In this document: piece by piece, positions 4,621 through 45,008 of the stretch
Layout: each line of letters begins with the position of its first letter
How positions within the stretch are numbered: position 1 is the stretch's first letter
IMG/VR virus record: IMGVR_UViG_3300037400_002947
Coordinates: 54,999 to 118,998 of that record
Origin: a virus
Taxonomy: Duplodnaviria > Caudoviricetes
Strand: one strand, 5' to 3'
Length of the DNA: 64,000 nucleotides
Program-made: the position numbers and the translations under genes
The notes under the pieces: model-generated
The model's input: only the letters and a program-made list of their open reading frames with translations
Database searches by the model: none
What the model was told of the DNA's origin: nothing

Positions 4621-6174
4621 TTAATTCATGTTATCAATCTTGTCTCTTGAAGCCTCGCCGTCATCAGTAAGGCTCGAATCGTCAGACTTCGGTCTGCCAG
4701 AGGTATTATTGGAAGACGTATAACTCGAACGAAGTGGGGTAACAAACTTGTCGCCAAGCTTGAGAATCCCGTCCTCAAGATGATTTAGGCTAAGAGAATC
4801 TAATTCAGTCAGACCACTAAGAGCCAACACAGCAAGCTTAGTAGGAAGAGAGTACTGCGCATTTTCAAGCAGTTCCTTTCTTACATCTTCTCGGTTAAGT
4901 CGTCCAACATGGTAGAAATGAATCTTACTCGGATTTGATACTTCAAATCCAACAACACGATTGAACCACCCCTCGATTTGTGGCAGAAGGTTCGAGATTG
5001 CAAATTCAGTATCAGCAAGAATCGCCGCTTTGAACGCCGTCGTTCCAGATACTTCAGCCGAATTCAAAATCTGCGCACCGCCAGAAGTGTTTAGAACAGA
5101 CTTAGTTGCTTTCAACACTTTGTTGGTTTCGTTTGTTTTGTCCGAACTTGAAAAGTCAATTACTCCGAGATCTTCACTCCCAGGAACAATTGCAGCGGAA
5201 GCGTATGATGGAAGTGCTTCTTCGACCATGCGGTTAAAATACTCAACTGCAACATCCGGCGAAACTTCGTAGTCGTCCGGCACCTTCGTTCCGGTAAGCG
5301 TCTTAAGCTTCATGTAAACAAGTTTGTAAATCTCAAGCTTGTCTGCAATTGCTTGGACATCTCCAATGTCATTAAGATTAATCAAATCACAGAGTAAGCC
5401 GCTGAACGGCGGCATAATAGTTGCCCAATCGTCGTTGCGATATTTAAAGCAGGCTGCATATTCATCGGGAACGCGTTGCCATCTTGCCTTGATAGTTTTT
5501 CCCTGGCGCTCATATTCACGCCACATTGACGTGAATGGTTCGCCCCATTCTTCAAGAAGATATGCGCGCTGACCAGTAAAGTAATCCATTGAAATACTAA
5601 ACGCAAAATCGCCAGTAGGATACTGACCATATATCCGACAGTACTCAGGCGGTAGTGCCAAGAAAAACAATCCGGTTTCATCGTAATAGGCTATATTGTA
5701 GCTTACGTCTTGAATAAAACACGTTTTAATAACTTTAAGAAATTCATTCTGAATATTCCATTTGTTAATCAGCTTAACAGTGTCATTATACGATTTAAGA
5801 ATCTTATCATCACTGTCCGGATTAACGAGGTCGTAAGTAGGAATCACAGAACGAGCTTCTAGACAAAACAGAGTAGAGAAGTAGTGGATTATTCTCTGGT
5901 ATATCTGGTTGCGATAATAAATGTACCAACTTGCATTACGAATATTATTCTCGTTTACAGATGGGTTCTGTAAAAACGTTACAATCCTATCTTTTGTGAT
6001 AGAATCAATCCTTTTATTAATTGATGAAGATTTTGTAATATCTCGTAAAGCAAGAAGAGGATTGTGAGAAGCGGCGTATTTACTTAGCTGCTCCTCATGT
6101 GTTTCAATCCATTGCTGCATTTCAGCAGCGGTCATTTTCTTAGGTGCAAGAGCACCAGTGCTTTCTTGTGCCAT
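4621..6174 (-). CDS. Portal protein
   Basis: ~517 aa directly after the terminase large subunit; C-terminal SSYTSS...GRP tail typical of portals; start ATG 6174 by RBS spacing. Confidence 0.8.
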   Translation of the reverse strand: MAQESTGALAPKKMTAAEMQQWIETHEEQLSKYAASHNPLLALRDITKSSSINKRIDSITKDRIVTFLQNPSVNENNIRNASWYIYYRNQIYQRIIHYFSTLFCLEARSVIPTYDLVNPDSDDKILKSYNDTVKLINKWNIQNEFLKVIKTCFIQDVSYNIAYYDETGLFFLALPPEYCRIYGQYPTGDFAFSISMDYFTGQRAYLLEEWGEPFTSMWREYERQGKTIKARWQRVPDEYAACFKYRNDDWATIMPPFSGLLCDLINLNDIGDVQAIADKLEIYKLVYMKLKTLTGTKVPDDYEVSPDVAVEYFNRMVEEALPSYASAAIVPGSEDLGVIDFSSSDKTNETNKVLKATKSVLNTSGGAQILNSAEVSGTTAFKAAILADTEFAISNLLPQIEGWFNRVVGFEVSNPSKIHFYHVGRLNREDVRKELLENAQYSLPTKLAVLALSGLTELDSLSLNHLEDGILKLGDKFVTPLRSSYTSSNNTSGRPKSDDSSLTDDGEASRDKIDNMN

Positions 6175-6186
6175 TCGCACCTCCCA

Positions 6187-8217
6187 TTATATAGTTTTTC
6201 CGCCGTATGAGCCGCGGCGAATAGTTAATTGTTGCACCAAAGACTTGGAGTTGGTCTTTGGCTTTTGATTGAGAAGAAGTTTGCGCCGCTCTTGTGCAAG
6301 GCCGTAACTGGCCATTGCCAATGTATAACTGCGGTCGTCGTGTAGAACATGCTCTTTTTCAGGAGTGAGTTCAAAGCTATCTCTACCAGAGTCGCGCTTC
6401 TTTCGAATCATGTTCACGACCTCTTCCTTCATGGCGTCTATATTTGCAAGAGCCAACTCTTCTTGCCAAGTGAGCCTAATAGTCCTTGTATTAACCGACT
6501 GGACCTTCCCTAGCTCTTCTTTGAGCTGCTCTTCAAATTGTTCCTGATTCAGTTTCTTCTTTTTGAGTTCAGCAGAAATTCTTTCTCGCTCCTCATCAAG
6601 TAGCTTCTGATCTATATCAAAGACGGTAAGATATTGTTTGTTATCATATGTAGCCGTAAAACTAATCTTGTCCTGATTGAGCATTTCAATCATTGCTTCA
6701 TAAATAATAGATTTATAACCAGATGGAGAGAGAAGTCTAACCTTATCTACTGCGTTTGGAAACCTCGAAACATATTCGGAAGAATACTCTTTATCTATGA
6801 GTCCTCTATGAACAATGCCGTCGGCAGTTTCCCAATCTTGCATCAGGTAGTCTGCAATATTGACGCCGCCTCCGCCAGAACCAGCATCAATATAGACTCC
6901 AAGAATATTGCCATAAGCATCCGCTCCACCATTGTAGTCAAGTATCATCTGCTTAAGGTATTTAATCTGGTCTGGCGTTTGCATAGGAGATTTCGTCTTC
7001 TTACCAACGTCCATCAAATTGACACAGTTTACAATTCTGGCACGAAGATCTTCGCTGCCATCGACCTGTGTTACACTATACACCTCAAACACGGTGATTA
7101 CGGAGTTATCCATGCTTCTAGCCGGATCGTATGCCAGTATAAACTTCTTATCACCAGTATCATTATATAAAAGAGGTTTTCGAGTTTCTTCGTTTCTTGT
7201 AATAACACCGCGCTTAACAATGGCGTTGGTCCCGGCCTCAGTTGTGAATATACAATAATATTCTCTACGAGCCTTCTCAGGGTTGATTCTCATTTCTGAT
7301 TCCACCTGAGACTTTTGTAGAAGAGGAGCAATCACTTCTCCGTGTAGAGTCGGATGAAACGCTTGTTCGCAGTCAATATGAAGCACGCAATAATCAGGAT
7401 CTCCCTCGATTTGCTTTTTGGCGAAATCTCTATACAATTTAAAAAAGCGCATGTCCACAGAACTTGCGCTTCCTATATAAAACTTTTGGTTTGGAACATC
7501 AGTAGCGAAAGTGCGCTGTCTAATAGGATCAATTGATTTGCCAGAAGCATCTTTACCAGTACGCAGGTTTTTGTCGACGATGGCAAACGCACTGTAAACG
7601 TTCATCATCTCGTCTGAGAGATGCTGCGCCTCATCAAATATTACAGAGCCGCGCATTCCGCGCTTTTTGTCTATGTTGGAGTTCAATGTCCACGTAGCAC
7701 TTCCATTATAGCAGGAATACGTAAAGCCATTTGAGCCATGACTGAAACCATCTCCGGCAGCGTTCTTTATCTCGACTTCGTCCTTGAATATTTTTCCGGT
7801 CGACCCTTGAAACGTATCTATGTTATCATTGGCGAGTCTCTCAAGCGTCGTAAAGGTTTGCTCCGCCTGAGAGCCAGATCCGCTTGCAATATAACTCCAA
7901 AGATTGCACCACAGCATGTCCTTGCTCATTGTCTCTAGACCTATGACTGTCGACTTGCCGTAACCACGAGCACAGCACACAAGAACATTAGGACAATTCC
8001 AGGAGCGCTGAACAATCAGAGCTTGTCCATCAAGCAACTCGATATTAAACATGATGTCAATAAAACGAATCGGATTGCACTGAAAATATCTCTGGAGATT
8101 CGCAATGCTGACTAGAGAATCAATTTTTTTACTAGACATAATATAGTCTACAGGCTTAATAAAGACTCCATAGTCATTATAGAATTCCTCATCATAAGGA
8201 AGAATTATCTGACTCAT
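6187..8217 (-). CDS. terL: Terminase large subunit
   Basis: Walker A ARGYGKST, Walker B VIFDEA, nuclease motifs YDPARS and HDDRSY. Confidence 0.9.
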   Translation of the reverse strand: MSQIILPYDEEFYNDYGVFIKPVDYIMSSKKIDSLVSIANLQRYFQCNPIRFIDIMFNIELLDGQALIVQRSWNCPNVLVCCARGYGKSTVIGLETMSKDMLWCNLWSYIASGSGSQAEQTFTTLERLANDNIDTFQGSTGKIFKDEVEIKNAAGDGFSHGSNGFTYSCYNGSATWTLNSNIDKKRGMRGSVIFDEAQHLSDEMMNVYSAFAIVDKNLRTGKDASGKSIDPIRQRTFATDVPNQKFYIGSASSVDMRFFKLYRDFAKKQIEGDPDYCVLHIDCEQAFHPTLHGEVIAPLLQKSQVESEMRINPEKARREYYCIFTTEAGTNAIVKRGVITRNEETRKPLLYNDTGDKKFILAYDPARSMDNSVITVFEVYSVTQVDGSEDLRARIVNCVNLMDVGKKTKSPMQTPDQIKYLKQMILDYNGGADAYGNILGVYIDAGSGGGGVNIADYLMQDWETADGIVHRGLIDKEYSSEYVSRFPNAVDKVRLLSPSGYKSIIYEAMIEMLNQDKISFTATYDNKQYLTVFDIDQKLLDEERERISAELKKKKLNQEQFEEQLKEELGKVQSVNTRTIRLTWQEELALANIDAMKEEVVNMIRKKRDSGRDSFELTPEKEHVLHDDRSYTLAMASYGLAQERRKLLLNQKPKTNSKSLVQQLTIRRGSYGGKTI

Positions 8218-9493
8218 AGTCATTCTCCTCCTCGCCAGTAAATTCTATATCTCCGCTAAATACGGAATACAAGTCTCTAAGATTCTTAAGACTACCTTTT
8301 GGTTTGATTCCCTTTTCATCAAGATAGTCTTTAAGGTCAAGATTTTCTTTAAGTAGAATACGATTGATCTCTTTATAACTATCCTTCTCTTTGCGTAACC
8401 GCTGATTGGTCTCGCGCATGTTCGCAACAATGTCAGACCATTCCGATTCGTCAAGGGCAAGCTGTTTCATAATGGATGCGTCGCTGATTTCCTGCACCTG
8501 CTGCATTCCTTTGCAAGTAGCAACATCAAACCCATTCATCTCGCCTTCGCGAAGATTCAGATCTTTAATACGTTTAATTTTTCCAGTCCAGGTGTTCTCG
8601 CCTTTAACCTGACGTTTACTATTTTTTAAGCTTAGACAACTTTCCGCCGCAAGATTAGTAATCATACTTGTGATTTTCTGTTTAGAATCTTGCAGAGACT
8701 TGATGGTAGCAGAGTTGTCCTGCACCTCGTTTATATTCCCCATCAGTTTTGCCATCGTATCATCAATTTTCTGAAGCTGTAAAAAACCTCTGACAATCTG
8801 AATAGCAGAAGAGACGCGCATCATATCATCGTTGGCGTCTTCAGAAGCGTCCAGCATTCCAAGAAGCTGAGAGTATAAGAATGGCTGATCGCTGACTGGC
8901 TCTTTTTCAAACGGGTCATAGTCAAGCAGACGAATAACGTCTTCTTTATTCTTTATATAACTATCATACGTATCCATTCCGGCGTGTTCTTCGACTATCT
9001 CCTGTTCGGTTTTTTCATCCTCGTATTTAATCCGAACTTTAAACATGTCGGAATCTTTCCAACCAAGACCGTTGTATTGCCCCATTTGGATATTTTTCAT
9101 ATAGGCTCTATAGGCATTGGTCTTGACCTTGCCAGATGCCAGATTTTCACTTTCCTGAATACTTGCATTCCATACCGTCTCAATAAACGGCTTATCCAAA
9201 TATCTTAGGGCGAGCTGTGCAGATTCTTTGGTCGGCTCGTGAGAGTCACCAAACTTATCAACACGCTCCGCAATCTTTCGAGCGCATTCTTTACAAATCG
9301 GAGTAACGCCACCTTTGCACATAGGATCGGTACTCACATAAAACTTTGACCTATCCTTGATAGAATCGCACATCCGACAGTAAGCGCTTTCCTTCAGTTT
9401 CGCAATTTCCTCACGCATCTTTACGTTTTCGGCGCGAATCTGCGCAATCGGAACCTTCTTATCAGTGATAGGCTCTATTTTTTTTGTAGCCAT
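8192..9493 (-). CDS. Putative terminase small subunit with N-terminal Zn finger
   Basis: Start ATG 9493 (MATKKIEP) after AAGGAG; CxxC...CxxC near the N-terminus; immediately upstream of terL (SPbeta yonG position). Confidence 0.6.
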   Translation of the reverse strand: MATKKIEPITDKKVPIAQIRAENVKMREEIAKLKESAYCRMCDSIKDRSKFYVSTDPMCKGGVTPICKECARKIAERVDKFGDSHEPTKESAQLALRYLDKPFIETVWNASIQESENLASGKVKTNAYRAYMKNIQMGQYNGLGWKDSDMFKVRIKYEDEKTEQEIVEEHAGMDTYDSYIKNKEDVIRLLDYDPFEKEPVSDQPFLYSQLLGMLDASEDANDDMMRVSSAIQIVRGFLQLQKIDDTMAKLMGNINEVQDNSATIKSLQDSKQKITSMITNLAAESCLSLKNSKRQVKGENTWTGKIKRIKDLNLREGEMNGFDVATCKGMQQVQEISDASIMKQLALDESEWSDIVANMRETNQRLRKEKDSYKEINRILLKENLDLKDYLDEKGIKPKGSLKNLRDLYSVFSGDIEFTGEEENDYESDNSSL

Positions 9494-9519
9494 ATCATCT
9501 TTCTCCTTTTCTTTCCAAT

Positions 9520-9596
9520 TGCCCGCGGCAGGATTTGAACCTGTGAACCCCCGCTTTAGAAGGCGGTGCTCTAGACCGAACTGAGCTACGTCGGGC
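9520..9596 (-). tRNA. Atypical tRNA (Arg-TCT-like; 8-nt anticodon loop CTTCTAAA), possibly pseudo
   Basis: TAGCTCAGTTCGGTCTAGAGC D-arm, CAGG-TTCAAAT-CCTG T-arm, acceptor GCCCGACG/CGCGGGC with one bulge; no encoded CCA. Confidence 0.75.
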
Positions 9597-9670
9597 ACAT
9601 AGACCTGTCGCCATAATGGCACTCTAGGGTGGCAGGTAACCCTTTCCGGTTTAGTAGCTCCGGCAAGCTT

Positions 9671-10852
9671 TTATAATTGAATCGGATAAAACGCTTTTAT
9701 CCCATCGTCATTAATGACTGCAACCGCCTGTGAAGGCGAGCCAACAAGTCTATGCTCAATACAATAATTCGATCCACTCCCAGCAAATGTTCCGGACTGA
9801 ATAACCTTAACCCCACTTATTTCGGAATAAGCTGTACTGTGTCTATGCCCGATGACAATTGCATACGGGACTTCTCCAATCATCATAGTTAATTTCTGAA
9901 CACCAGAAGCATCGGCCGTGTCATAATCTCCGTGGCAAAGAATGAATTGCAGTCCACAAATATTAAAAAAGGCTATTGTTGGGTCATATTTACAATGATC
10001 GAAAAACTTAACATTCGACACATTAGCAAGTTTTGCCTTCGCATACCAGCAGACAATAGAGTCAAGCCGTTCGCCACGCATGACTTCATTTTTCTTTCCA
10101 AGGCGAGAATGATTGCCAGATACATCGTTTACATAGACAACATTTACCAGCTTGCTCATTTTGAATATAAATTCAGAAATAAGTTCGCTGACAGTCTGAA
10201 CTTGCTGTATAACATTTTCGCCGTTTTCAAGTATTGTCGTGTAATGAATGATTCCGTTAACAGAATCGCCAAGTAAAGCAATGTATGCTTTATCAACATC
10301 ATGCTTTTTCACAATGTCGCAAATCTGAAGATAATACTTGTCGAATGTTTCCTTGGCGATTTTTACATTATACTCGCCAAAAAAAGAATCACCCGTGTCC
10401 AGACCGAGATGAACGTCTGACAGACATATAAGAATGTCGTTAACGCCAGAAGAGGAGATAACTATATTAGAAGACTCATAGGGCGATGTTTCCCTGATAA
10501 GCGATTCAAGATAATCTAGCTTTTCTTCTATCCGTGCAGAATCGCGATTCTGTCTCTGCCAAGCGTTGCGCTCGTCTCTGAATTTTACTTTTTCACGTTC
10601 AAGCATTCTCCGCTGATTTTCCATATCCTTCAGCTGATCTTCAGATTCAGTGAACAATTTTTGATTAGCAACGAACATTTTCTGAAATGCAGCGTATTTT
10701 TTGCGATATGTGCTTTCTCCGTAGTCATTGCCCAGAAGCTCGTTTAGAATGTCAGCGACATCCTGCCACGATCCAATTATTTCCTTGTCTTTACAAATTC
10801 GAAAAATCAGTTCATCGTCTGACTCTCCAAGATATCTTTTGTATTCAGCCAT
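9671..10852 (-). CDS. Calcineurin-like metallophosphoesterase (SPbeta YonJ-like)
   Basis: Motifs SDVHLG, LLGD, GNHSR, CHGD, GHRH. Confidence 0.85.
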   Translation of the reverse strand: MAEYKRYLGESDDELIFRICKDKEIIGSWQDVADILNELLGNDYGESTYRKKYAAFQKMFVANQKLFTESEDQLKDMENQRRMLEREKVKFRDERNAWQRQNRDSARIEEKLDYLESLIRETSPYESSNIVISSSGVNDILICLSDVHLGLDTGDSFFGEYNVKIAKETFDKYYLQICDIVKKHDVDKAYIALLGDSVNGIIHYTTILENGENVIQQVQTVSELISEFIFKMSKLVNVVYVNDVSGNHSRLGKKNEVMRGERLDSIVCWYAKAKLANVSNVKFFDHCKYDPTIAFFNICGLQFILCHGDYDTADASGVQKLTMMIGEVPYAIVIGHRHSTAYSEISGVKVIQSGTFAGSGSNYCIEHRLVGSPSQAVAVINDDGIKAFYPIQL

Positions 10853-10871
10853 TCATTATTCTCCATAAAAC

Positions 10872-11502
10872 AATGCAGCATTTTATAACAGCCATAAATA
10901 GGATTTCTCCTTACAAGCAAATAACGTCGTAATATTCAGTCATGGTGTCAACAAGTCCGAGCCACGCCAGCGTCCCAGCGAGACTTCTTGCCGAACAAAC
11001 CAATCAACCGATGCAAAACACCAGTCAAACGATTCGCAAATCACCAAAGAGATTGATACTCTCAACTTTCACCCGTCATTCGGAAAGAAGTCATCCCAAT
11101 GACAAATGTGCTACACGTCATAATTTCCGTTGGTTGAGCTACTCGTCCGGCAAACAGTTCTTATAGTCGCATTTCTGCAACGTCACAACGGTAGTAGCGG
11201 CTTATTTGGATTTCCCTTACTTACCACTCCAACAGTTTTCCACACCGTTGGCATCAGGGTTGTTCTCACACAGTGAGCGTCTATTGTGCCGCCGAACTGA
11301 ATCCGACTTTTTACGGTCATATTTGTTTGTGCCAGAGCTTGGCTTTTGCGGTTTCCGCATTTCCTATACAGGCATCACTGCCACTCGGAGATCACCAACT
11401 CAAAGTATCCCATGAATCAACGACCCGTCATACGCTCTGCCTCGGCACGGTGACTAACCGATCTTCACCGAGGTATTAATGGATGTTATAAAATGCTGCA
11501 TT
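10872..11502 (-). ncRNA. Large structured ncRNA (~630 nt), ROOL-like
   Basis: Intergenic; perfect 19-bp inverted repeat at 10872-10890 and 11484-11502; GNRA-capped hairpins on the minus strand (GGCA-GTGA-TGCC, GTTGCA-GAAA-TGCGAC, AGGA-GAAA-TCCT); size and phage/tRNA context fit ROOL. Confidence 0.75.
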
Positions 11503-11511
11503 CACAGCTAG

Positions 11512-12111
11512 TTAAATTATTTCATCAACAATTCCGAGCCGAAGCATTTCATCGGCATCAAGCCATAATTCTTTACGCTCAATCTTGTCGTAGTATTCTT
11601 CGTCAATTTTAGTATGAGAGAGTATATAGTCTTTGATTTTATCCTCATAGTGTTGACTAAAATCAAAGGTGTCTTTAACGGCGTGTGCCGAACCTTCCAT
11701 ATACTGCGAACCACTATGAATGAGGCCAACGCTAAACGGATGGCACACTGTTTTAACGTTCGGATTACTTCTGCCTGCCATTGCAATCAACGTACCCATC
11801 GAAGCAGCAAGCCCAACAATATGAATTGTCGTTGGGGTTTTGGCTTTTTCGATTGCGTCAACTAGCGCAAATCCAGCGTAAATATCACCACCAACCGTAG
11901 ATACAATGATTTCGATAGGCTTTCCACTTCCATCTGAATCCATTTCAATAAATGGAAGGATGGCCATTTCTAGAATCGAATCATCAATTTCCTGGTTAAT
12001 AATGATTCTTCTGTTGTTCAGATTGTTATAATACTGATATGACACAGGATCCGGAAGACATCCGTTGTCAAATACAGTGCTTAGAAGCTCACCTACTCCT
12101 ACTACATTCAT
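11512..12111 (-). CDS. clpP: ClpP-family protease
   Basis: STVGG, catalytic AASMG, GLIH and ELWLDADEMLRLGIVDEII; likely start ATG 12111. Confidence 0.85.
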   Translation of the reverse strand: MNVVGVGELLSTVFDNGCLPDPVSYQYYNNLNNRRIIINQEIDDSILEMAILPFIEMDSDGSGKPIEIIVSTVGGDIYAGFALVDAIEKAKTPTTIHIVGLAASMGTLIAMAGRSNPNVKTVCHPFSVGLIHSGSQYMEGSAHAVKDTFDFSQHYEDKIKDYILSHTKIDEEYYDKIERKELWLDADEMLRLGIVDEII

Positions 12112-12316
12112 TCCTTTTTTTCTCCTTATATTGAAATGTGGAGAGCACAGCACGCACTCTCTTTGACGGACCCCAATCACAATCAATCAGACCTTGTATG
12201 CATAATCTGACGTATATTATTTTCCAATCGGAATCCATCAACTTTGTAATCGCACGAATAACACAATCCCCAGTACGTTTGTACCGGGGATTGGGATTAT
12301 AAAAAACATATGCCAT
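12089..12316 (-). pseudogene. Truncated phage protein of the NPNP...GDCVIRAI family
   Basis: N-terminus matches a common ~130-aa phage family (from memory) but similarity ends after ~48 aa and the frame runs into clpP. Confidence 0.4.
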
Positions 12317-12594
12317 TATCTTACATAGTCTCTAAAAGATCTGCTTACCAGAACTTTGATTCTTGTGATTGGTTCGGAACGCTGCATGCAATTTTCTTTT
12401 GGATTGCGCACCATTCTTTCGCCTAGCCTATCACCCCGAATACCAAGTCCTTCAAACAGTTTCACCTCGTCACATTTTCTAACATGATCGTAAACCAAAT
12501 CCTTCATTGTGCCGATGATAAATTTCAATTCGCCTAACGTGTAACCAGTTCGATCACGGATCTCTCTGATCAAATCATCATTACTTATATACAT
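12316..12594 (-). CDS. HU/IHF-like DNA-binding protein (SPbeta YonN position)
   Basis: 92 aa; DLIREIRDRTG...EVKLFEGLG...RMVRNPK HU pattern. Confidence 0.75.
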   Translation of the reverse strand: MYISNDDLIREIRDRTGYTLGELKFIIGTMKDLVYDHVRKCDEVKLFEGLGIRGDRLGERMVRNPKENCMQRSEPITRIKVLVSRSFRDYVR

Positions 12595-12669
12595 TTAACT
12601 CCTTTTGCTCTGAAAAGGTCTCCTTTCTCTCATAAGGGAACCTTGACCGACTTAAAAATAGAACAATAA

Positions 12670-15303
12670 TTATTGAACTGACAATTTGTCAGAATCGTTC
12701 AGGTGTACAGATTTTGAGGCATTTTTTGAAAAAACCTGAAGGAATTGCCGCGGACTAACATCGTATAAAACCTTCATCAGTAAAGAACGGTTCTTATTTA
12801 ATGTCGTTTTAATTTCTCTTTGATTCTTTTGAATACTTGGTGTGATTGAGAAGGCTCGATTGATAAGCCATGATATGAGAGGAAGATAATTGTTTGAGAG
12901 GTATACGCCACGAATATCTGAAATCATTTCATCAAAGTCTTGTCGTAGCAATAAATATTCTTCCTCGTCTGAAATGTCATCTGCGTTGTATTTATAAAGA
13001 TTGAATGAATACTTTTGAATTAATTCTTCGACCTTCTTGCACTTCCGGCGATCGCCAGTCATTTCGTAACGATTGTAAAAGGTGTCGATCGGAAGAGTGG
13101 ATTCGTCCGAGCGGTTCAGTGGTGATCTGTACATAAACAGGCAATTCATCGGACATTGTAAATCTGGATTTATTAGGTGGATTGCTTTTTCTTTAGTGTA
13201 TCTAATCGGGCTGAACTCCGGCTTAATAATTCGCCAGAAACTCGGATAGAGATTCTCGTTGAGTTCCATGGCCCGTTTTATTCTTTTTATCTCCGAAGGT
13301 ATGTCACAATCATAAGTGCGTTTTGCATTGTCAATTGCCGCCTGGGCAAGAACCGACAAAATACAAACAAAGTCCTCGAACTTTTGTTCTGAAAAATTGT
13401 AAGTATACGTCAGAGCTATCTGCGCCAGATTGCTAGACTCACCGATTGCGAGCTGTGCCTTTGCCAGTTTGTTATCAATTGCCGCAAAATTTTCAAGCGT
13501 ATTGTTGTAGTGGTTCTTTTCTTTTGGTATATTGTTTACTATTGTTGGATAGTCAAACTTACATAGTTTTGCGTGTGCGACTATCTGCGGTTGGTTTGTT
13601 ACATACAGACTGTCAGAGTCTTGATCGCTTCCGTTCGCGCGATCCTGAAAGTCTGTGTGATTTAAATTCACTGCAATTATCTGCTTGCCAAAATTAAAAT
13701 ATCTATCAAAGAGTTCATGATAGTGGTTGCGCAGAGAAATAATATTATTACACGAGTTATGCGGAGATCTGAATCCCGCAATGCTTTCCCCATTCTTAAA
13801 CCTGCCAGTGAAGCATTGTATTGCATCCTCTTCTTGTAAGAATGTTGGGTCATCATCTGGATTAAGACCAACCGTATACATCAACATTGCGTACGGGCTA
13901 CCTACGATTACAAGATTGTCCGCATTCTGGATCAGCTTCCCAGACTTCATGTTCGTTACATATGTGTTTATGATTTTTTTCTTTCTCTCGCGAAAATAAT
14001 CGCATCGCAAGAAGTCCCTGTCTTGATTCACAAGCGCAATAAGCACTTCAAAGTCGTTGCTGAAATTTTTGTTATTGTCGAGATAACGAAGAAACTCGTC
14101 GTCATCTGTCTGTAACTTTTGCAAATACAAATCGGTTTCGGCAATTACCTCTGTCATATTATTAATATCAAGAGTGTTGACCATTTGATAGCTCATCTTC
14201 TGAACATCGCCAAGCTTAGAAGGATGGGCGGTCTTAACTATGCCAAACAGCGAATCATTTTTTCGAACCCATTCACACCAGTAATCGTATGAGATATCAA
14301 ACTTTAGCCACTTGATTGCATTGTCCGTGGTAACCATCTTTATATCTTTGACGAGATGATCGTTACCCCACATATCTTTGATGGTGGCGTCTTGATAATC
14401 ACCGCCATAATGATCTCGGAAGAACTCTTGCAGGTTCGTGCTAAATGCGGCGGCTTTGAACATGTGTTGCCGAAGCAGAATGTATCCGTCGCCCCAGGGC
14501 GGAAACACACTTGAGTCAATCAATGCCTGCCCATCGAACATCGTATTCTTTAGACGGTAATTGTCTTTATGAATTGCAACACACTCTCTGTTTTCGTTTG
14601 TTTCAATGCTCACAACATTTGTTTCAAAAAATGAATCTACGTCTTCGAGAATTAGAATGTTTTCCGGCTCAATTTTTACTCGCCCAACAATAGTACTCGT
14701 GATGAGAGAAGAGTAGGCACCAATCTCTACAATTTGCGCATTCTCTTTTGGTAGTTTGATTCCCATATACAAGAAGTCACGCGCCTTGTTGTAAAGCCTA
14801 TCACATATAAAATACACCGTGCCTTTTTTTGCTTTACCTGGGGTCCGGTACAGCATTTTATAATGTATTGATTCTTTTTTGATCACGTCGCCATGTTTAT
14901 TGTGAGTTTTATATGTTACTGAAACACCATTGACGTAGAACATGGTTCTTAATTCGGCTTTTGACTTTTTGTCGTAACGATGTTCGTTCCGCTTTGCCTC
15001 AGCAATTAAATTGGTTATACGTTCAATCCGAGCCTCATCATCCGGATTGGTTTCGCCTAAAAGCTTTTCCAGATGTTTTATCTCATCTTCGTAACTGCGA
15101 GACCCGTATCCGAATTCAAGACATACGACGTCGCGCGTTGATCCATCCTTCCATATTCGTATGCCATTGTCCATGAGAAAGTCCAGAAACAATGAGTTTG
15201 TCAACATTGCATCCTTGGTGTCAAGATTATCTCTAACACCAAGGTTGCATTCATAAATAGAAGAGGCTTGGATGTTTTTTATCTTAAGTCCATACTCATT
15301 CAA
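12670..15303 (-). CDS. YonO-like single-subunit RNA polymerase (double-psi-barrel, RdRP-homologous)
   Basis: FDGQALID, RSPHN and metal-binding GSDQDSD motifs; synteny with HU and terminase as in SPbeta; probable TTG start at 15303 (ORF track 15345). Confidence 0.85.
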   Translation of the reverse strand: MNEYGLKIKNIQASSIYECNLGVRDNLDTKDAMLTNSLFLDFLMDNGIRIWKDGSTRDVVCLEFGYGSRSYEDEIKHLEKLLGETNPDDEARIERITNLIAEAKRNEHRYDKKSKAELRTMFYVNGVSVTYKTHNKHGDVIKKESIHYKMLYRTPGKAKKGTVYFICDRLYNKARDFLYMGIKLPKENAQIVEIGAYSSLITSTIVGRVKIEPENILILEDVDSFFETNVVSIETNENRECVAIHKDNYRLKNTMFDGQALIDSSVFPPWGDGYILLRQHMFKAAAFSTNLQEFFRDHYGGDYQDATIKDMWGNDHLVKDIKMVTTDNAIKWLKFDISYDYWCEWVRKNDSLFGIVKTAHPSKLGDVQKMSYQMVNTLDINNMTEVIAETDLYLQKLQTDDDEFLRYLDNNKNFSNDFEVLIALVNQDRDFLRCDYFRERKKKIINTYVTNMKSGKLIQNADNLVIVGSPYAMLMYTVGLNPDDDPTFLQEEDAIQCFTGRFKNGESIAGFRSPHNSCNNIISLRNHYHELFDRYFNFGKQIIAVNLNHTDFQDRANGSDQDSDSLYVTNQPQIVAHAKLCKFDYPTIVNNIPKEKNHYNNTLENFAAIDNKLAKAQLAIGESSNLAQIALTYTYNFSEQKFEDFVCILSVLAQAAIDNAKRTYDCDIPSEIKRIKRAMELNENLYPSFWRIIKPEFSPIRYTKEKAIHLINPDLQCPMNCLFMYRSPLNRSDESTLPIDTFYNRYEMTGDRRKCKKVEELIQKYSFNLYKYNADDISDEEEYLLLRQDFDEMISDIRGVYLSNNYLPLISWLINRAFSITPSIQKNQREIKTTLNKNRSLLMKVLYDVSPRQFLQVFSKNASKSVHLNDSDKLSVQ

Positions 15304-16459
15304 GCTTACATATTCCCCCTTCAATGTGTTTGCGGATTGAGTCAACCAGTAACTTTACTTCGTAAGGTTTAGTGTCCGGTTCAAAACTGATGCGCACCGT
15401 CTGCCTTGCCTTTTCGTCGCTGTACATCATTGCTTTAAGAATGCGGCTAGGCTTATTTTCTCCTGTCGAACACGCCGATCCGGCTGAAAGTGCAAAGCCA
15501 TCCATGTTGAGAGCGGCGACCAGTTTGTTTGCGTCGACACCGTCAAAGCTTACGGACAGAATATTTGGCGCACTGCCAACGACGAATGGCGGCAAAGACA
15601 GGGCCTCAATGCGACTATCATGCAACTCGCAATAAAGCAGCTTCTTAAGGTGATTGAGATTCCACAAGTTTTGTTCTACAGAATCTCTGTAGCTCTTAAG
15701 CGCTTTCGACATTGCAACAATTGCCGCTACGTTTTCGGTCCCAGGGCGTAGACCGCCCTCTTGATGTCCACCGTACATAAACGGCCGGAGAGAAGATGGA
15801 TCTTTTGCATATAAGAATCCGCATCCTTTGAAGCCGCCGAACTTATGGGCGCTGGCAAATGCGTAGTCAACGCCCAGATTGACTTTGCGGTCATATGCAA
15901 TACTCTGCGTCATGTCACAAAGAAACAACACTTCGGAATCCATCTCGACCATCTCAACGATTTTGTCGACAGGCTGAATTACGCCTGTCTCGTTATTGAC
16001 GCTCATTACGCAGATAAGAACATGCTTTTTATACATCGATGGATCTAACAGAATTGCCGCAATTTCTTCGTGCGACACGCGACCGCGCTCATCGACCGAG
16101 AGCCATCGTGTAAGAACGCCGCAGCTTTCCATATATTTGACAGTGTTGTAAACACATGGATGTTCAATAGGAGAGCAGATGATGAGCCAGTCGTCTTCTT
16201 CACCACGAGGAATCTGCCCCTGAATAATCCAGTTTGCAGCTTCAGTCGAACCGGAAGTAAAGAATATCTGCTCCGGATTAGCACCTATGCTGTCTGCTAT
16301 CGTACGCCGCGCATCTTCAAGGGCGACTCGTGCATCCAGTCCGCCGTCATAAACGGTAGAAGACGGATTGTACCATTTACCAAAGCTGATATCAGCAAAC
16401 GCATCGATTGCTTCAGTAGAAGGTGCAGTTGTGGCGGCATTGTCAAAATAGTAAAGCAT
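15296..16459 (-). CDS. iscS: Cysteine desulfurase (IscS/NifS family)
   Basis: YFDNAATT, FTSGSTEA, VNNETG, PLP lysine SAHKFGG, RPGTEN, catalytic Cys in SAGSACST. Confidence 0.92.
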   Translation of the reverse strand: MLYYFDNAATTAPSTEAIDAFADISFGKWYNPSSTVYDGGLDARVALEDARRTIADSIGANPEQIFFTSGSTEAANWIIQGQIPRGEEDDWLIICSPIEHPCVYNTVKYMESCGVLTRWLSVDERGRVSHEEIAAILLDPSMYKKHVLICVMSVNNETGVIQPVDKIVEMVEMDSEVLFLCDMTQSIAYDRKVNLGVDYAFASAHKFGGFKGCGFLYAKDPSSLRPFMYGGHQEGGLRPGTENVAAIVAMSKALKSYRDSVEQNLWNLNHLKKLLYCELHDSRIEALSLPPFVVGSAPNILSVSFDGVDANKLVAALNMDGFALSAGSACSTGENKPSRILKAMMYSDEKARQTVRISFEPDTKPYEVKLLVDSIRKHIEGGICKLE

Positions 16460-16719
16460 CAGTTCTGTACCCTTTCGAGAGTGTATACGCTGTTTTCGGT
16501 AACTACGGTAATTGTTCGTGTAGCCTGATCCATAGCGTCCATGACCACGGGAGATGTCAGCATCGCCTTACCAACCCGTTCGCCAACGGCATACTCCGCA
16601 TACATGCGCTCCTCGCCGTCTGAACAAAGCTTGAACTCAGGATCATAAATTATTTCACCAATCCGCTCCGGCTTTTGGGTTTTGCCAGAGCGGTCGGTAA
16701 CGTTTGCTATTCTGTACAT
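16459..16719 (-). CDS. Hypothetical protein
   Basis: 86 aa, AAGGAG RBS, coupled to iscS. Confidence 0.65.
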   Translation of the reverse strand: MYRIANVTDRSGKTQKPERIGEIIYDPEFKLCSDGEERMYAEYAVGERVGKAMLTSPVVMDAMDQATRTITVVTENSVYTLERVQN

Positions 16720-17073: not shown

Positions 17074-18237
17074 TTAATGATATTTCAATAAATAATCGTT
17101 GCTTACAGCCTTGAATGACTGCTTGCCGTCCATGCTGCGGAACACAATTCCTTCGCGCATGCCGTCGTATAGCTGGGACTTGCCGTCCGCCATTGCAACA
17201 ACAGCATCAACGTCGTCCGGCAGTTCAACGCCAAAATCAAGAATCGGCACACATGGAATTCCAAACCTGTCCATTACGCGCACCATCTCGACAGAGCTTA
17301 CACGACCACACGAAGAATAAATCAGATTAAACACAGCAAGCCGACGCTCGTGCAGTCCATATGTTGTTTTTTGAACGCCCTCTCCGTAAACTTCTCCCTG
17401 AATCGTAATATATGATTCGTTAGAATTCTCTTCGAGAAGCTTTCCAAGAACCTCGCGCATCTTGTACTTTTCAGCCATTTCGGTATAGATGTTCGTATCA
17501 TAGTAACAAGATTCTTTTCCGGTCTCGAAACAAACGTTGCGAGAGCACACGAGAAATTCCGGCTTGCTCCACACATGCTTGCCACGACGGATAGTAAATG
17601 TGCTGCTTGAGCCGTCAATCTTCTCTGTGGCAATCCAATGAGTGTCTCCGTGGAGAATATATGGTACGTTTTGGATTCGATCCTCGTCTGTTTTGCGCAC
17701 CCAGTCCGGCCATCCGTGATCCTTTTTCTTTTTGCCAAAAAACAGGAACAGCAGTTTCCTTCCCCAGGTCCTTTTCATCATCCACCGGAACGGCTGTTTG
17801 GCAAACAGCTTTCCGTGACGTTGTGCCATCTTTTTGTACTTGTCGCCAGAAGGAGCCTTGCGAATGTTGTCCTGCGGCTCGTAATATTTGACACCAAGTT
17901 TTTCGGTTACATAATCTCCGACGGCGCACGACGCAAGCTCCGGAAATTCTGAGAGCGGCATCAGCAGTCCTTGGGAAATAACTTTGCCTTTGCACATCCG
18001 CTGAGTCTTCACGCGGTATTTATACTTCTCGCAGAATGCGAAGCGCTCGTCGGTAGCGGGAAGGAGAGAGTCGATCTCAAAATATACGGCGGCGTCTCCG
18101 GCTCTCATTTCTTTACCAACGACGCAGTGCCAACCATTTACTGTGGCAAGAGCAATGCGGTCGTACCCTTCAATCGGCTCGACAGCATCGACAGTGACGA
18201 TGTATGCGAGTTCGCGCTCGCCTTTTTTGTTAAGCAT
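17074..18237 (-). CDS. ATP-dependent RNA ligase (DRB0094/Rnl5-like)
   Basis: N-terminal OB-like domain (YFEIDSLLP); motif I TEKIDGSS, IQGE, EGIVFR, SFKAVS. Confidence 0.85.
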   Translation of the reverse strand: MLNKKGERELAYIVTVDAVEPIEGYDRIALATVNGWHCVVGKEMRAGDAAVYFEIDSLLPATDERFAFCEKYKYRVKTQRMCKGKVISQGLLMPLSEFPELASCAVGDYVTEKLGVKYYEPQDNIRKAPSGDKYKKMAQRHGKLFAKQPFRWMMKRTWGRKLLFLFFGKKKKDHGWPDWVRKTDEDRIQNVPYILHGDTHWIATEKIDGSSSTFTIRRGKHVWSKPEFLVCSRNVCFETGKESCYYDTNIYTEMAEKYKMREVLGKLLEENSNESYITIQGEVYGEGVQKTTYGLHERRLAVFNLIYSSCGRVSSVEMVRVMDRFGIPCVPILDFGVELPDDVDAVVAMADGKSQLYDGMREGIVFRSMDGKQSFKAVSNDYLLKYH

Positions 18238-18567: not shown

Positions 18568-19054
18568 CGGTACTTCCTATACCCCCCTTGCGCTTGCCAG
18601 TCGAAGAGTCGTCCTCGACGGTCTCGTACTTCACAATGATGCCCTGGGCAATTCGATTACCAGAATCGAGATACTTCCACTCGTCGTCTCTGTTGTAGAC
18701 ACAAAGAATAATGTGTCCCTCGTTGTCAGAGTTATCATAGTAATCAGCATCGATGACTCCGATGGTGTTGGCCAGAGATAACCCGCGCTTGATTCCGATG
18801 CTTGAACGAATATCAAGAAGTAGAACGCAGTCGTTGTCGAGTCTGCACTTTACTCCGGTATAAATTTTCTTTGTGCCGCGCGGCGGAATTGACACGTCAT
18901 ATGGTAAATAAAAGTCATATCCGGCAGAGTGTGCCGTTAACCGTTTCGGCAGGATGATGCCGCTCCAGCAGTGACCGACCCAGTCTTCGTCGTTTTCGGA
19001 CGGCGCAAGGTCGGCAAGAAATTGGCTTTTTGTTACTCTTTCAAATTTATTCAT
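18560..19054 (-). CDS. dut: Trimeric dUTPase
   Basis: SAGYDF, RSS, GVIDADY, RIAQG, RKGGIGST. Confidence 0.92.
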   Translation of the reverse strand: MNKFERVTKSQFLADLAPSENDEDWVGHCWSGIILPKRLTAHSAGYDFYLPYDVSIPPRGTKKIYTGVKCRLDNDCVLLLDIRSSIGIKRGLSLANTIGVIDADYYDNSDNEGHIILCVYNRDDEWKYLDSGNRIAQGIIVKYETVEDDSSTGKRKGGIGSTDE

Positions 19055-21476
19055 TGATATCCTCCACTGTTATATTGACATCTATTCGACGCGCCAAATC
19101 ATAGACTACGTCTACGGTTACTCCATTTCCGGCTTGTTTGTAGAGCTGCGAATCGCTGTTGACCAACTCAGCCTTTACAAAATAGTCATCGCTCCAACCC
19201 TGAAGTCTGAAACACTCTTTGGGAGTTAGTTTACGAATGGCAATGTAGCAATCATACTTTGGATACCAAATTGCACTTACAGTCTCACCATTCGGAAGCT
19301 CGACATCGATTATGTTGTGCTCTCCATCCCCATCAATACCGATTGCAACACCATGCCTGTCTATGCTTGTAAGCGTAAAAGAGCACTCGCCATCCTCTTT
19401 GAATCTGCGACCATTTTGGCGCTTAACGCTTCGCTCTGGAGTCAGAACAGGAATTACGACACGGTTCATAGTCTGGTGCGTCCTCATTCCTTCTTTGGCA
19501 GGTCCACTTGAAGAAAGACATTGGGCAACGTCCGACTCATCTCCAATTATTCCGTTTGCGAATTTTACGAGGACTGCACTCGCACCGCGATCGCCGTCCA
19601 TAGTGAAATTAGTCAGACTGTTTTTCTGGTACTGGTATTTGAGAGTACGACACGTTCCGTCGGGCATTGTATTAAACCCGACAGGAAGAGCGGTGTAGTG
19701 TTCTCGTCCGCCGCCTTGACATGTCGAGAGAGCCTCTGTAATTCCGTCCTGGGCAAATATCTGCGTATTCCTACGGTACGCTTTATGGTGACCAAGTATT
19801 TTTACTGGAACACTATTCGCTTCATTTGCTGAGCAGAGAGGAAATACTTCGCGTCCGCCTCTCGATCTAAGATGTCCGACAAGATATACGCGTTCCCTGT
19901 TTTGGGGGACGAAATATTTCGAGTTGTACATCTGCCATTCGCAGTCGTACCCTAGGTCATCCATTTCAGACAGAATGGCAAGGAAGTCAAATCCGTTATT
20001 GCTGCTAAGCATGCCTTTAACGTTTTCATACACAAGCCATTCGGGGCGATCGTCTTCGCCGATTTCTTTAAGGATGCGAAAGACTTCTCGGACAAGAGAG
20101 CTTCGATTTCCTTCGAGACCTGCTCGCTTTCCGGCGACGCTAAAATCCTGGCAATTGTGCGCTGCAAGTCCGTTTGCCGTGTAGCTGTGGTCATCCTCAA
20201 CCTCCATGTTGTAAACAATTTCTTTCTCTTTTGGGTGGTAATCAATTTGTTTTAATGGCATCCAAAGATTTCCATCAACAATATATCCATTATTCTGCTT
20301 TTTAATTTCCTTATGGAATTGCAAACAGTACTGATCTTTCTGATTTACCAGTCGCCCTTCAATAATATGCTGATCTTTTGTTTTATAATGATGAATGGAA
20401 AACGGAGTGGCGTATGCCTTAAGCACGCATTGTCCCATTTGATAAATTAAGCCTTCGCTAACGCTCTGAGCCTTGAAGTATCCGTCCTTTTCGCATCCAT
20501 CGCCACTCATGTATCCATCAATAAACACGGTTAGTTTTTCCGGAGGCAAATCCATAACGAACTGAGGAATGCGTTTATTTTCTGCGCCCCTTCCACATTC
20601 CGAGCAAAGACCAAAGAGCCGTTTATCCGTTGTGGTATATTTCAAACATGTTCCCGCACTGCTGTCGACGGCAAAGCTGTACGTCTCAATGTGCTTATTG
20701 AATTCTGTACTCTTGTCAGAACCAATACAAAATGCGGTTCTTCGTGCAAGCGTATTCCTGTCTTTGCGCTCATATTCCTGGAGATAACCATCGGCAACAA
20801 ATCTTCCAAGAAACCAACACTCTTCGTCGGTAAGATTCATTGCATTACAAGAATTCTCGTTATGCGGGAACATGATATATTCGTCTCCAGAGAAATCTTC
20901 GACTGCCTTCCATTCTGGGGATGTCCATATAACGTCGTAATTTCTTGTAGCACTATTAAACTTCCTTTTCTTATAGCGCACGTAAAACCTATGGTTTCCG
21001 GTTACTTTTGTGCTCGGAGAACCTTGAACCTTAATCGTGTACAGGTTGCCTTTGTAGTTGATCATCTTCTCGGTGACCCGCTTAAACCTATTTGTATGAG
21101 TAAGAACAAAATCACCAACACAAATATCTTCAATGGGTACAAGACCGCGGTGTGTAGAAACTAAAGTGCCAGCAACAAAGCAAGGCGCTCCGAAGCACCA
21201 GCAGTCCGCTTTCGGGATAGTGTCTCCGGTAATGCTCCGGACGTCGTCGCAGTACCATTCTCCGTTTCGGTATTTCTCATTCAGTATCTCCTTGACTCTT
21301 TTATTTTTAGGAAGCGACGCAATATATGAGAGCTGATCATCAGAACATAGGTGCATCGCCGTATATGACGCCGTCGCATATTTGTCAAACTCGCAGAAGC
21401 CGACGCACTCGTGTCCGGCCATCTCCATGCCGCGCCTAAAGCCGCCAATTCCGGCAAATAGGTCTATAAATTTCAT
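19047..21476 (-). CDS. dcm: DNA (cytosine-5) methyltransferase, intein-containing, probably multispecific
   Basis: DLFAGIGG, GAP|CQDFS split by the intein, ENVKG, QNRERVY, RKLTPKEC, QAGNGV. Confidence 0.93.
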   Translation of the reverse strand: MKFIDLFAGIGGFRRGMEMAGHECVGFCEFDKYATASYTAMHLCSDDQLSYIASLPKNKRVKEILNEKYRNGEWYCDDVRSITGDTIPKADCWCFGAPCFVAGTLVSTHRGLVPIEDICVGDFVLTHTNRFKRVTEKMINYKGNLYTIKVQGSPSTKVTGNHRFYVRYKKRKFNSATRNYDVIWTSPEWKAVEDFSGDEYIMFPHNENSCNAMNLTDEECWFLGRFVADGYLQEYERKDRNTLARRTAFCIGSDKSTEFNKHIETYSFAVDSSAGTCLKYTTTDKRLFGLCSECGRGAENKRIPQFVMDLPPEKLTVFIDGYMSGDGCEKDGYFKAQSVSEGLIYQMGQCVLKAYATPFSIHHYKTKDQHIIEGRLVNQKDQYCLQFHKEIKKQNNGYIVDGNLWMPLKQIDYHPKEKEIVYNMEVEDDHSYTANGLAAHNCQDFSVAGKRAGLEGNRSSLVREVFRILKEIGEDDRPEWLVYENVKGMLSSNNGFDFLAILSEMDDLGYDCEWQMYNSKYFVPQNRERVYLVGHLRSRGGREVFPLCSANEANSVPVKILGHHKAYRRNTQIFAQDGITEALSTCQGGGREHYTALPVGFNTMPDGTCRTLKYQYQKNSLTNFTMDGDRGASAVLVKFANGIIGDESDVAQCLSSSGPAKEGMRTHQTMNRVVIPVLTPERSVKRQNGRRFKEDGECSFTLTSIDRHGVAIGIDGDGEHNIIDVELPNGETVSAIWYPKYDCYIAIRKLTPKECFRLQGWSDDYFVKAELVNSDSQLYKQAGNGVTVDVVYDLARRIDVNITVEDINE
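20154..21182 (-). mobile_element. Intein (343 aa) with LAGLIDADG homing endonuclease
   Basis: Starts CFVAGTLV, ends YTANGLAAHN followed by Cys; LAGLIDADG-like FLGRFVADG and FIDGYMSGDG. Confidence 0.92.
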
Positions 21477-35891: not shown

Positions 35892-36334
35892 ACAGCGGCA
35901 GGATGCCGAAGATTTATTCTCTGGCGTCCGACCTTATCAAAGGCAAATCAGTGATCGACTACGGTTGCGGAAAGTACTTTGACAACTACGTCGGAAATGT
36001 CGACTGCGACCTGCACGGATACGACAAGTACAACCGACCGGATGAGAACGAAATCGAGGGCGAGTACGACATCGCTCTTTGCTCGAATGTGCTGAATGTA
36101 ATCGCCGAAAGAGACGAACGCATCAAGGTTTTAAGGGAACTCAAGCGGCTTGCACCGAAGGTGTTGATAACCGTCTACGAGGGTGACCGGAGCGGAAACG
36201 GAAGAGAAACAAAGGCAGATTGCTACCAGCTTAACCGAAACGCAAGCGAATACAATCCTGAGATTTCTCAGGTGTTCGAAAAGGTCACATGGTCGCGCAA
36301 AAGATTTTGGATTTGTGAGAGGAGAACTGCTTAA
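35858..36334 (+). CDS. Small class I SAM-dependent methyltransferase
   Basis: IDYGCGK, GYDKY, CSNVLNVI. Confidence 0.8.
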   Translation: MQRFTSANTSVNSGRMPKIYSLASDLIKGKSVIDYGCGKYFDNYVGNVDCDLHGYDKYNRPDENEIEGEYDIALCSNVLNVIAERDERIKVLRELKRLAPKVLITVYEGDRSGNGRETKADCYQLNRNASEYNPEISQVFEKVTWSRKRFWICERRTA

Positions 36335-44764: not shown

Positions 44765-44994
44765 TGAATAGAGAAAGACGTAAAAAGATTATGAATATAC
44801 ATGATGAACTCGAAAACGTAGTTTGCAAGTTAAACGATATACTAGATGACGAACAAATGGCATTCGATTCCATGCCAGAAGGCTTGCAAAGCTCTCAAAG
44901 AGGAGAAGATTCGGAAGAGTCGATTGACAATATGTCTGAGGCGATTGAATATATTGAAAGAGCAATCGAAATGTTAGATGATATATGTATATAA
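44764..44994 (+). CDS. Small acidic helical protein
   Basis: MNRERRKKI...MPEGLQSSQRGE, a common phage family. Confidence 0.7.
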   Translation: MNRERRKKIMNIHDELENVVCKLNDILDDEQMAFDSMPEGLQSSQRGEDSEESIDNMSEAIEYIERAIEMLDDICI

Positions 44995-45008
44995 GGAAGG
45001 AGTCTAAA

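Follow-up and report, generated by a model that had tools for sequence, protein, structure and literature searches.

The window analysed here, the 64 kb at the right-hand end of a 118,998-bp IMG/VR virus contig that is estimated to be 72% complete, has a GC content of 44% and carries portal, terminase, and integrase genes. Its minus strand holds an array in the order yonO, HU, a 75-aa ORF, ClpP, a ROOL RNA, yonJ, a tRNA-like gene, yonG, terminase, and portal, the features of which are as follows.

12670..15345, minus strand: YonO-like single-subunit RNA polymerase, 891 aa (BLASTP to SPbeta YonO, Asp triad, synteny)
12316..12594, minus strand: HU-like DNA-binding protein in the yonN position (Pfam Bac_DNA_binding, 5.9e-5; yonN at the same place in SPbeta)
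11512..12111, minus strand: ClpP-family serine protease, prohead-protease-like (Pfam CLP_protease, 3.3e-27; PHROG head maturation protease, 2.8e-32)
10872..11502, minus strand: ROOL RNA gene including the extended closing helix (cmscan match to RF03087 at 10881-11496, fold z-score, covariation)
11474..11502, minus strand: closing helix P1, 5' strand (29-nt arm, 93% complementary to 10872-10900; covaries)
11004..11028, minus strand: lineage-specific extra hairpin within ROOL (22-nt insert relative to the model; predicted hairpin)
10872..10900, minus strand: closing helix P1, 3' strand (repeat finder; covaries in relatives)
10860..10865, minus strand: yonJ ribosome-binding site GGAGAA, 5 nt after the closing helix (sequence and fold)
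9671..10852, minus strand: YonJ-like metallophosphoesterase/exonuclease (Pfam Metallophos_2; PHROG exonuclease, 2e-59)
9519..9597, minus strand: unusual tRNA-like gene (Rfam tRNA, 31.4 bits; conserved in relatives)
8192..9496, minus strand: YonG-like protein (orthologues carry PF27269, YonG_N)
6187..8223, minus strand: terminase large subunit (PHROG phrog_2, 2.7e-24)
4621..6180, minus strand: portal protein (PHROG phrog_2739, 9.9e-81)

The 891-aa ORF is identified as a YonO-type polymerase by pairwise BLASTP against SPbeta YonO (22% identity over 336 aa, E 4e-6), by retention of the catalytic Asp triad (DQDSD, for DNDGD in SPbeta YonO), and by synteny; it has no Pfam match of its own at threshold and no PDB sequence match. 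Its orthologues in related contigs match Pfam RdRP (PF05183), the family by which YonO-type two-barrel polymerases are detected. The ClpP gene begins with an ATG at 12111 served by an AAGGAGA site, and its 199-aa orthologue in the closely related contig L002 is 97% identical in DNA. The yonJ product shares 23% identity with that of SPbeta yonJ, and its relatives carry YonJ_N (PF27386). SPbeta has the order yonO, yonN (HU), a 1.68-kb gene-free gap, yonK, yonJ, yonG, yonF, and yonE, and the succession from yonO through HU, a non-coding stretch, yonJ, yonG, and terminase to portal, all on one strand, is common to SPbeta and the window. The two differ in that the window has a ClpP gene between HU and the RNA and has no yonK. 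An earlier reading of this DNA from its letters alone (the sequence-only reading) had proposed a YonO-like polymerase, a late-operon setting, and an RNA flanked by clpP and a phosphoesterase gene. The polymerase is borne out by the BLASTP match, the triad, and the RdRP-matching orthologues, the setting by the agreement in gene order with SPbeta from yonO to yonE, and the flanks by a ClpP ORF that ends at 11512 and a YonJ_N-family ORF that starts at 10852.

The phage that carries this array is large and SPbeta-like, and is probably a temperate phage of gut Clostridia. A temperate life is suggested by the integrase gene at 44985-46001, and a Clostridia host range fits the named isolates among GTDB genomes that bear a related prophage, which are Lachnospiraceae (Coprococcus, Konateibacter) and a Clostridium sp. 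Several other genes in the window deserve mention. Just upstream of yonO lie a class-V aminotransferase resembling cysteine desulfurases (15296-16459, minus strand) and an RNA ligase with a PHA02142 OB-fold (17074-18237, minus strand), and RNA-repair or tRNA-modification functions are possible for this pair near the RNA-gene slot. An 809-aa protein (19047-21476, minus strand) combines DNA methyltransferase matches with an N-terminal PHROG match resembling anaerobic ribonucleotide reductase, and a 422-aa protein (36334-37602, plus strand) has a methyltransferase fused to an HNH/endonuclease VII domain.

We used cmscan at the gathering threshold to compare the entire 64-kb window with all 4227 Rfam families. 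There are two matches, a weak tRNA at 9595-9520 and ROOL (RF03087) at 11496-10881 on the minus strand. The ROOL match is untruncated, extends over model positions 1-574 of 574, and scores 308.6 bits (E 4.7e-70), three times the gathering cut-off of 99.1 bits. GOLLD has no match within the window at the gathering threshold, and neither GOLLD, OLE, nor any other large-RNA family was detected in 8000-16500 by a permissive cmscan (E up to 1). GOLLD is, like ROOL, a large ornate phage and prophage RNA that is often found near tRNAs and forms cages, in its case of 14 copies, but it is unrelated in sequence and fold. The gene measures 616 nt by the Rfam match and 631 nt with the extended helix. This length of ~620 nt, the phage context, and the nearby tRNA-like gene are all in keeping with the family, for which a mean length of 581 nt has been reported (Weinberg et al. 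2017, PMC5737381).

The match is equally complete in detail, with all model helices, the GNRA loops, the conserved blocks, and the variable linker of the family present. The blocks (GGGAUACU loop, ACAAUAGACG, UUCxGAAUGA, GGUGAAAG, and UGAAUAUU) align to the upper-case consensus positions and are also conserved across lineages in an alignment of ten copies. Model region 360-410 has low posterior probability in the alignment of the window, and in the ten-copy alignment an internal linker at columns ~385-445 varies in length and is without conservation. The inverted-repeat arms at 10872-10900 and 11474-11502 are 29 nt long, lie 573 nt apart, and contain a perfect 19-bp core, a feature that by our own estimate would be expected by chance ~1e-6 times in 660 nt. 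The minimum-energy structure of a 666-nt stretch includes this closing helix, leaves the yonJ ribosome-binding site single-stranded, and has a z-score of -5.96 relative to dinucleotide shuffles. The sequence-only reading had described a ROOL-like structured RNA of ~630 nt, closed by a 19-bp inverted repeat and containing minus-strand GNRA loops and two further stems. Each of these elements has a counterpart in the covariance model or the repeat: the full-length RF03087 match gives the RNA its class, with GOLLD and OLE absent; the 19-bp repeat is the core of the 29-nt arms; the loops are those of ROOL model helices (GUGA at ~11371-11382, GAAA at ~11166-11181, and GAAA at 10900-10911); and the CCTCGG/CCGAGG and CCAACGG/CTGTTGG stems are model helices in the cmscan alignment.

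We found 22 ROOL copies in the clade (that of the window and 21 others). They comprise 18 different sequences and fall into four lineages, which are 53-66% identical to one another; the copies of the window and L002 are 84% identical. An RNAalifold analysis of ten copies from the four lineages predicts 139 pairs, in agreement with the structure line of the Rfam model, and in 93 of these at least one sequence has changed on both sides with the pair kept, which provides the covariation that a conserved structure should leave in relatives. The ROOL copies of the window and L002 differ by 101 substitutions, yet of the 32 pairs affected, 25 are still canonical. The closing helix is ~26 bp in all four lineages, with many double changes (columns 6-31 with 642-668), and thus differs from the Rfam consensus P1 in being ~10 bp longer; in the window it reaches 29 bp. 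A second departure from the family is the extra hairpin of ~25 nt at 11004-11028, which falls in a stretch of ~30-50 nt that the other lineages do not have (alignment columns 491-520 are occupied by the window and L002 only). A candidate 4-bp complementarity between a hairpin loop (UGGA) and a junction (UCCA) becomes UGGU/ACCA in lineage B, a double change that may correspond to one of the long-range contacts published under the P10/P13/B4 numbering of the cryo-EM structures. The predicted fold is maintained through compensatory changes in the relatives.

Short ORFs of 41-74 aa can be drawn on both strands of the 10872-11502 gap, and one might ask whether the gap holds no functional RNA at all, being instead a decayed coding region, a mobile-element scar, or the site of a chance inverted repeat. 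A full-length covariance-model match at E 4.7e-70, 93 covarying pairs, and a fold z-score of -5.96 stand against such a reading and leave it next to no probability; the match to RF03087 and the covarying pairs rule it out. At the level of sequence, and by all features tested, the minus strand of 10872-11502 is a full-length ROOL proper. The RNA class, its association with phages, and its cage structure have already been published, and the window adds a new copy rather than a new kind of RNA.

What the locus does offer is a setting that can be compared across many relatives. A single YonJ protein used as the query retrieved no related loci; these were recovered with an alignment of homologues, of which metagenomes hold more than 1600. 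Likewise, BLASTN of window positions 9000-13000 against 50,697 phage records gave no match, since ROOL sequences are too diverged for a DNA search. The closest contigs, L002 and L003 (92% YonJ identity), have ROOL at the same site (314 bits). L004-L006 (67%-68% YonJ identity) are without it and have six small genes filling the interval from ClpP to yonJ, and in L007 ClpP abuts yonJ. Among 80 related IMG/VR records, defined by a YonJ of 39%-49% identity, 19 contain a full-length ROOL (290-370 bits), and among records that are at least 90% complete the count is 8 of 24. All 20 GTDB genomes with a related prophage are without ROOL, as are SPbeta and phiCD211. Mapped onto a quick maximum-likelihood tree of YonJ, records with ROOL occupy four separate positions, and at least six gains or losses have to be assumed. 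This patchy presence (19/80), together with the gains and losses, indicates that ROOL is an exchangeable accessory and is dispensable for the late operon.

The position of ROOL is far more constant than its presence. All 22 copies lie on the coding strand of yonJ and between yonO and yonJ, at distances of 19 nt to ~4.2 kb upstream of yonJ. In two lineages a single small gene, overlapping the yonO stop, stands between yonO and ROOL; in one ROOL comes directly after yonO; and in the lineage of the window it comes after HU, the small ORF, and ClpP. The gene overlapping the yonO stop is found in most relatives (for example, L065:608-1462 and L034:1308-2072), encodes 254-284 aa, and has no Pfam match; in two lineages it is the gene immediately ahead of ROOL, and its product could be a partner of the polymerase. 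Other RNA genes occur in the same region. In relatives without ROOL (L009, L045, L048, L051, L052, L059, L102, L106, and L081), same-strand RNA genes are found no more than a few kb from yonJ: tRNA genes, singly or in pairs, and in L081 an RT-18 RNA (L081:1634-1715, 80 bits). The yonN-yonK gap of SPbeta (AF020713.1) contains a DUF3800-VIII RNA (L127:6450-6515, 47.5 bits against a cut-off of 40.2) ~260 nt upstream of yonK. Given these occupants, the yonO-yonJ interval looks like a variable slot for RNA genes, of which ROOL is one.

Comparison with the nearest relatives reveals one edge of the cassette and a recombination boundary. The ROOL-less L004-L006 have in common with the window both the yonJ ribosome-binding region and the final ~12 nt of the closing helix on its 3' strand (L004/L005/L006:4968-5000, corresponding to window 10884-10853), and this shared segment marks the right-hand edge of the ROOL cassette. 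On the ClpP side, DNA identity between the window and L002 falls from 97% in ClpP to 84% in ROOL and yonJ, a drop that marks the ClpP-ROOL junction as a recombination boundary in a mosaic. At this junction L002 is longer by 191 non-coding bases (L002:4134-4324, in place of window 11511-11503), beginning with a hairpin immediately after the ClpP stop. These extra bases raise the possibility that the tight packing of ClpP and ROOL in the window may be a recent deletion and not design.

Unlike family members that stand free in an intergenic region or a tRNA island, the ROOL of the window is wedged between protein genes, with 9 nt from the ClpP stop to the closing helix and 19 nt, containing GGAGAA, from the helix to the yonJ ATG. 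The sequence-only reading had the RNA begin 10 nt past the clpP stop, with no visible promoter and in co-transcription with the packaging genes. The flanks are as it gave them and the gap is 9 nt; we found no sigma-70-like promoter on the minus strand in 12655-10359; and its claim of co-transcription gains support from the tight spacing and from the lack of a flanking sigma-70-like promoter or terminator. No convincing sigma-70-like promoter precedes ROOL in the window, L002, or L065, and the counts of such sites were no higher than in shuffles. Terminator-like matches on the minus strand of 10872-11511 occur only inside ROOL or overlapping its 5' helix arm, and there is no terminator-like hairpin between ROOL and yonJ. 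With 9- and 19-nt spacers, no sigma-70-like promoter, and no terminator before yonJ, it is likely that ROOL and yonJ share a transcript, the start of which would lie far upstream, unless it is at a promoter of a kind invisible to the scan.

Two precedents bear on how such a transcript might be made and processed. In SPbeta, late transcription by YonO begins ahead of yonK and of a non-coding RNA that lacks annotation, and the late genes are expressed as a single operon (Forrest et al. 2017, PMC5467207, a study that gives no consensus for the YonO promoter). The RNA of the window resembles the SPbeta RNA in its strand, in its position after yonO and HU and before yonJ, and in belonging to a phage that encodes a YonO-type polymerase, and differs from it in kind, as the 1.68-kb gap of SPbeta is without ROOL and has the DUF3800-VIII RNA as its only match. 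The second precedent is the ROOL of Lactobacillus salivarius, to our knowledge the only ROOL studied in vivo. Encoded on a megaplasmid, it is a free 520-nt RNA that is extremely abundant and stable, with ends fixed by circular RACE; its promoter was mapped 225-450 nt ahead of the 5' end of the mature RNA (Cousin et al. 2017, PMC5643018). By analogy with these two systems (PMC5467207, PMC5643018), it is reasonable to suppose that YonO would be the transcribing enzyme and that ROOL would be excised at its terminal helix.

The closing helix itself invites a comparison with ribosomal RNA. A helix of 26-29 bp formed by the two ends of an RNA is the type of substrate cut by RNase III in rRNA precursors, and as in those precursor stalks, the double helix here arises from both ends of a structured RNA within a polycistronic transcript. 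The likeness has a limit, in that P1 of ROOL is part of the folded cryo-EM structure, so that only the outer extension would be removable.

The tRNA-like gene lies 75 nt downstream of yonJ and 1.3 kb downstream of ROOL. It is conserved between yonJ and yonG in four relatives (L002:6256-6334, L004:6442-6516, L005:6346-6421, and L006:6346-6421), with compensatory changes among the relatives in both the acceptor and the anticodon stem. The acceptor stem contains one additional, bulged A; in the window the anticodon loop is of 8 nt (CUUCUAAA), and ARAGORN assigned no anticodon to 9519-9597. Counting from the 3' side, the anticodon region reads CUA in the window, UUA in L005, and GUU in L004, and the gene could specify a suppressor-type tRNA or a tRNA-like RNA with a non-translational role. 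This odd gene raised the idea of stop-codon recoding, which we rejected: standard-code ORFs of at least 100 aa already cover 86% of the contig, reading TAG as sense adds almost nothing, and TAG terminates 7 of the 101 long ORFs.

Our preferred explanation combines these observations in a series of steps. Lacking a sigma-70-type promoter and terminator of its own, ROOL would be made within a longer transcript that also carries yonJ, as the spacing suggests. From the SPbeta and L. salivarius precedents, that transcript would be the late transcript of the YonO-type polymerase of the phage, and the ~620-nt RNA would be released from it by nuclease processing at or near the 29-bp closing helix. The released RNA should then fold alone and assemble into a hollow cage of eight copies, as expected from homology with ROOLs of solved structure: ROOL env-120 and two bacterial ROOLs are octameric nanocages in cryo-EM (Kretsch et al. 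2025, PMC12286853; Ling et al. 2025, as summarised in PMC12515178). Our best guess is that the cage would act in trans, as a late-infection particle that sequesters or shields a host or phage macromolecule. For this explanation as a whole, from the minus-strand gene and the YonO late transcript through processing to a trans-acting eight-copy cage, we estimate a probability of roughly 80%.

Two other accounts of the locus need to be weighed against it. According to the one, ROOL is an independent gene with a promoter of an unrecognised type towards the 3' end of the ClpP gene, and read-through into yonJ occurs by chance. The three other lineages lend this some credit, having 150-390 nt of non-coding DNA upstream of ROOL and terminator-like hairpins with T-runs downstream, so that ROOL there looks more like a separate transcription unit; the 191-nt spacer of L002 counts in its favour as well, and the promoter distance of 225-450 nt in L. 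salivarius (PMC5643018) would place a start inside ClpP. Yet no sigma-70-like site occurs on the minus strand anywhere in ClpP, and with no terminator before yonJ the downstream genes would still share the transcript. We regard this account as unlikely for the window. According to the other, ROOL works in cis, and its very stable fold would serve to insulate, stabilise, or time the translation of that part of the late mRNA which spans yonJ, terminase, and portal. Its placement 19 nt before the yonJ start codon would suit such a role, and the head of the late operon holds other folded RNAs elsewhere (DUF3800-VIII in SPbeta, tRNAs or RT-18 in ROOL-less relatives). Against this, the yonJ ribosome-binding site is unpaired with ROOL in the predicted fold; ROOL in other lineages is 0.9-4.2 kb from yonJ, with genes and hairpins between; and ROOL is also found outside operons, as in the free and abundant 520-nt RNA of the L. 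salivarius megaplasmid (PMC5643018). Taken together, these points make a role in cis quite improbable, more so than an independent promoter.

Within the trans-acting explanation, what the cage does can be narrowed somewhat. We know of no ROOL with a known function. A part in head assembly finds no support here, and an accessory, trans-acting role would fit better than a structural one, because most of the relatives that share these packaging genes do not have ROOL. Nor do we think, as a best guess, that ROOL is a component of the virion. A bolder version of the explanation would have the ROOL cassette always land in the yonO-yonJ interval of widespread SPbeta-like gut phages of 100-200 kb, be produced in bulk as a late YonO product, and serve as a late-stage weapon or helper cage, which would, for example, trap ribosomes, tRNAs, or a defence nuclease during virion building. 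We offer this version tentatively, as a possibility that we would bet against at present. If true, such a late, YonO-driven cassette would establish for the first time when and how a ROOL is expressed.

Few natural RNAs are known to form closed cages in the absence of protein, and ROOL is one of them. The published ROOL and SPbeta papers cited here make no mention of a link between ROOL and YonO. Every ROOL found in this clade is encoded on the coding strand and lies after yonO and ahead of the packaging genes, in the slot where the late transcript of SPbeta starts and where SPbeta has a different non-coding RNA. This position points to late expression of ROOL, driven by the phage polymerase, and to its processing from a longer transcript, and comparison of the relatives shows it to be an exchangeable accessory and not a core part of the late operon. 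Its placement between yonO and the packaging genes provides a concrete and testable lead.
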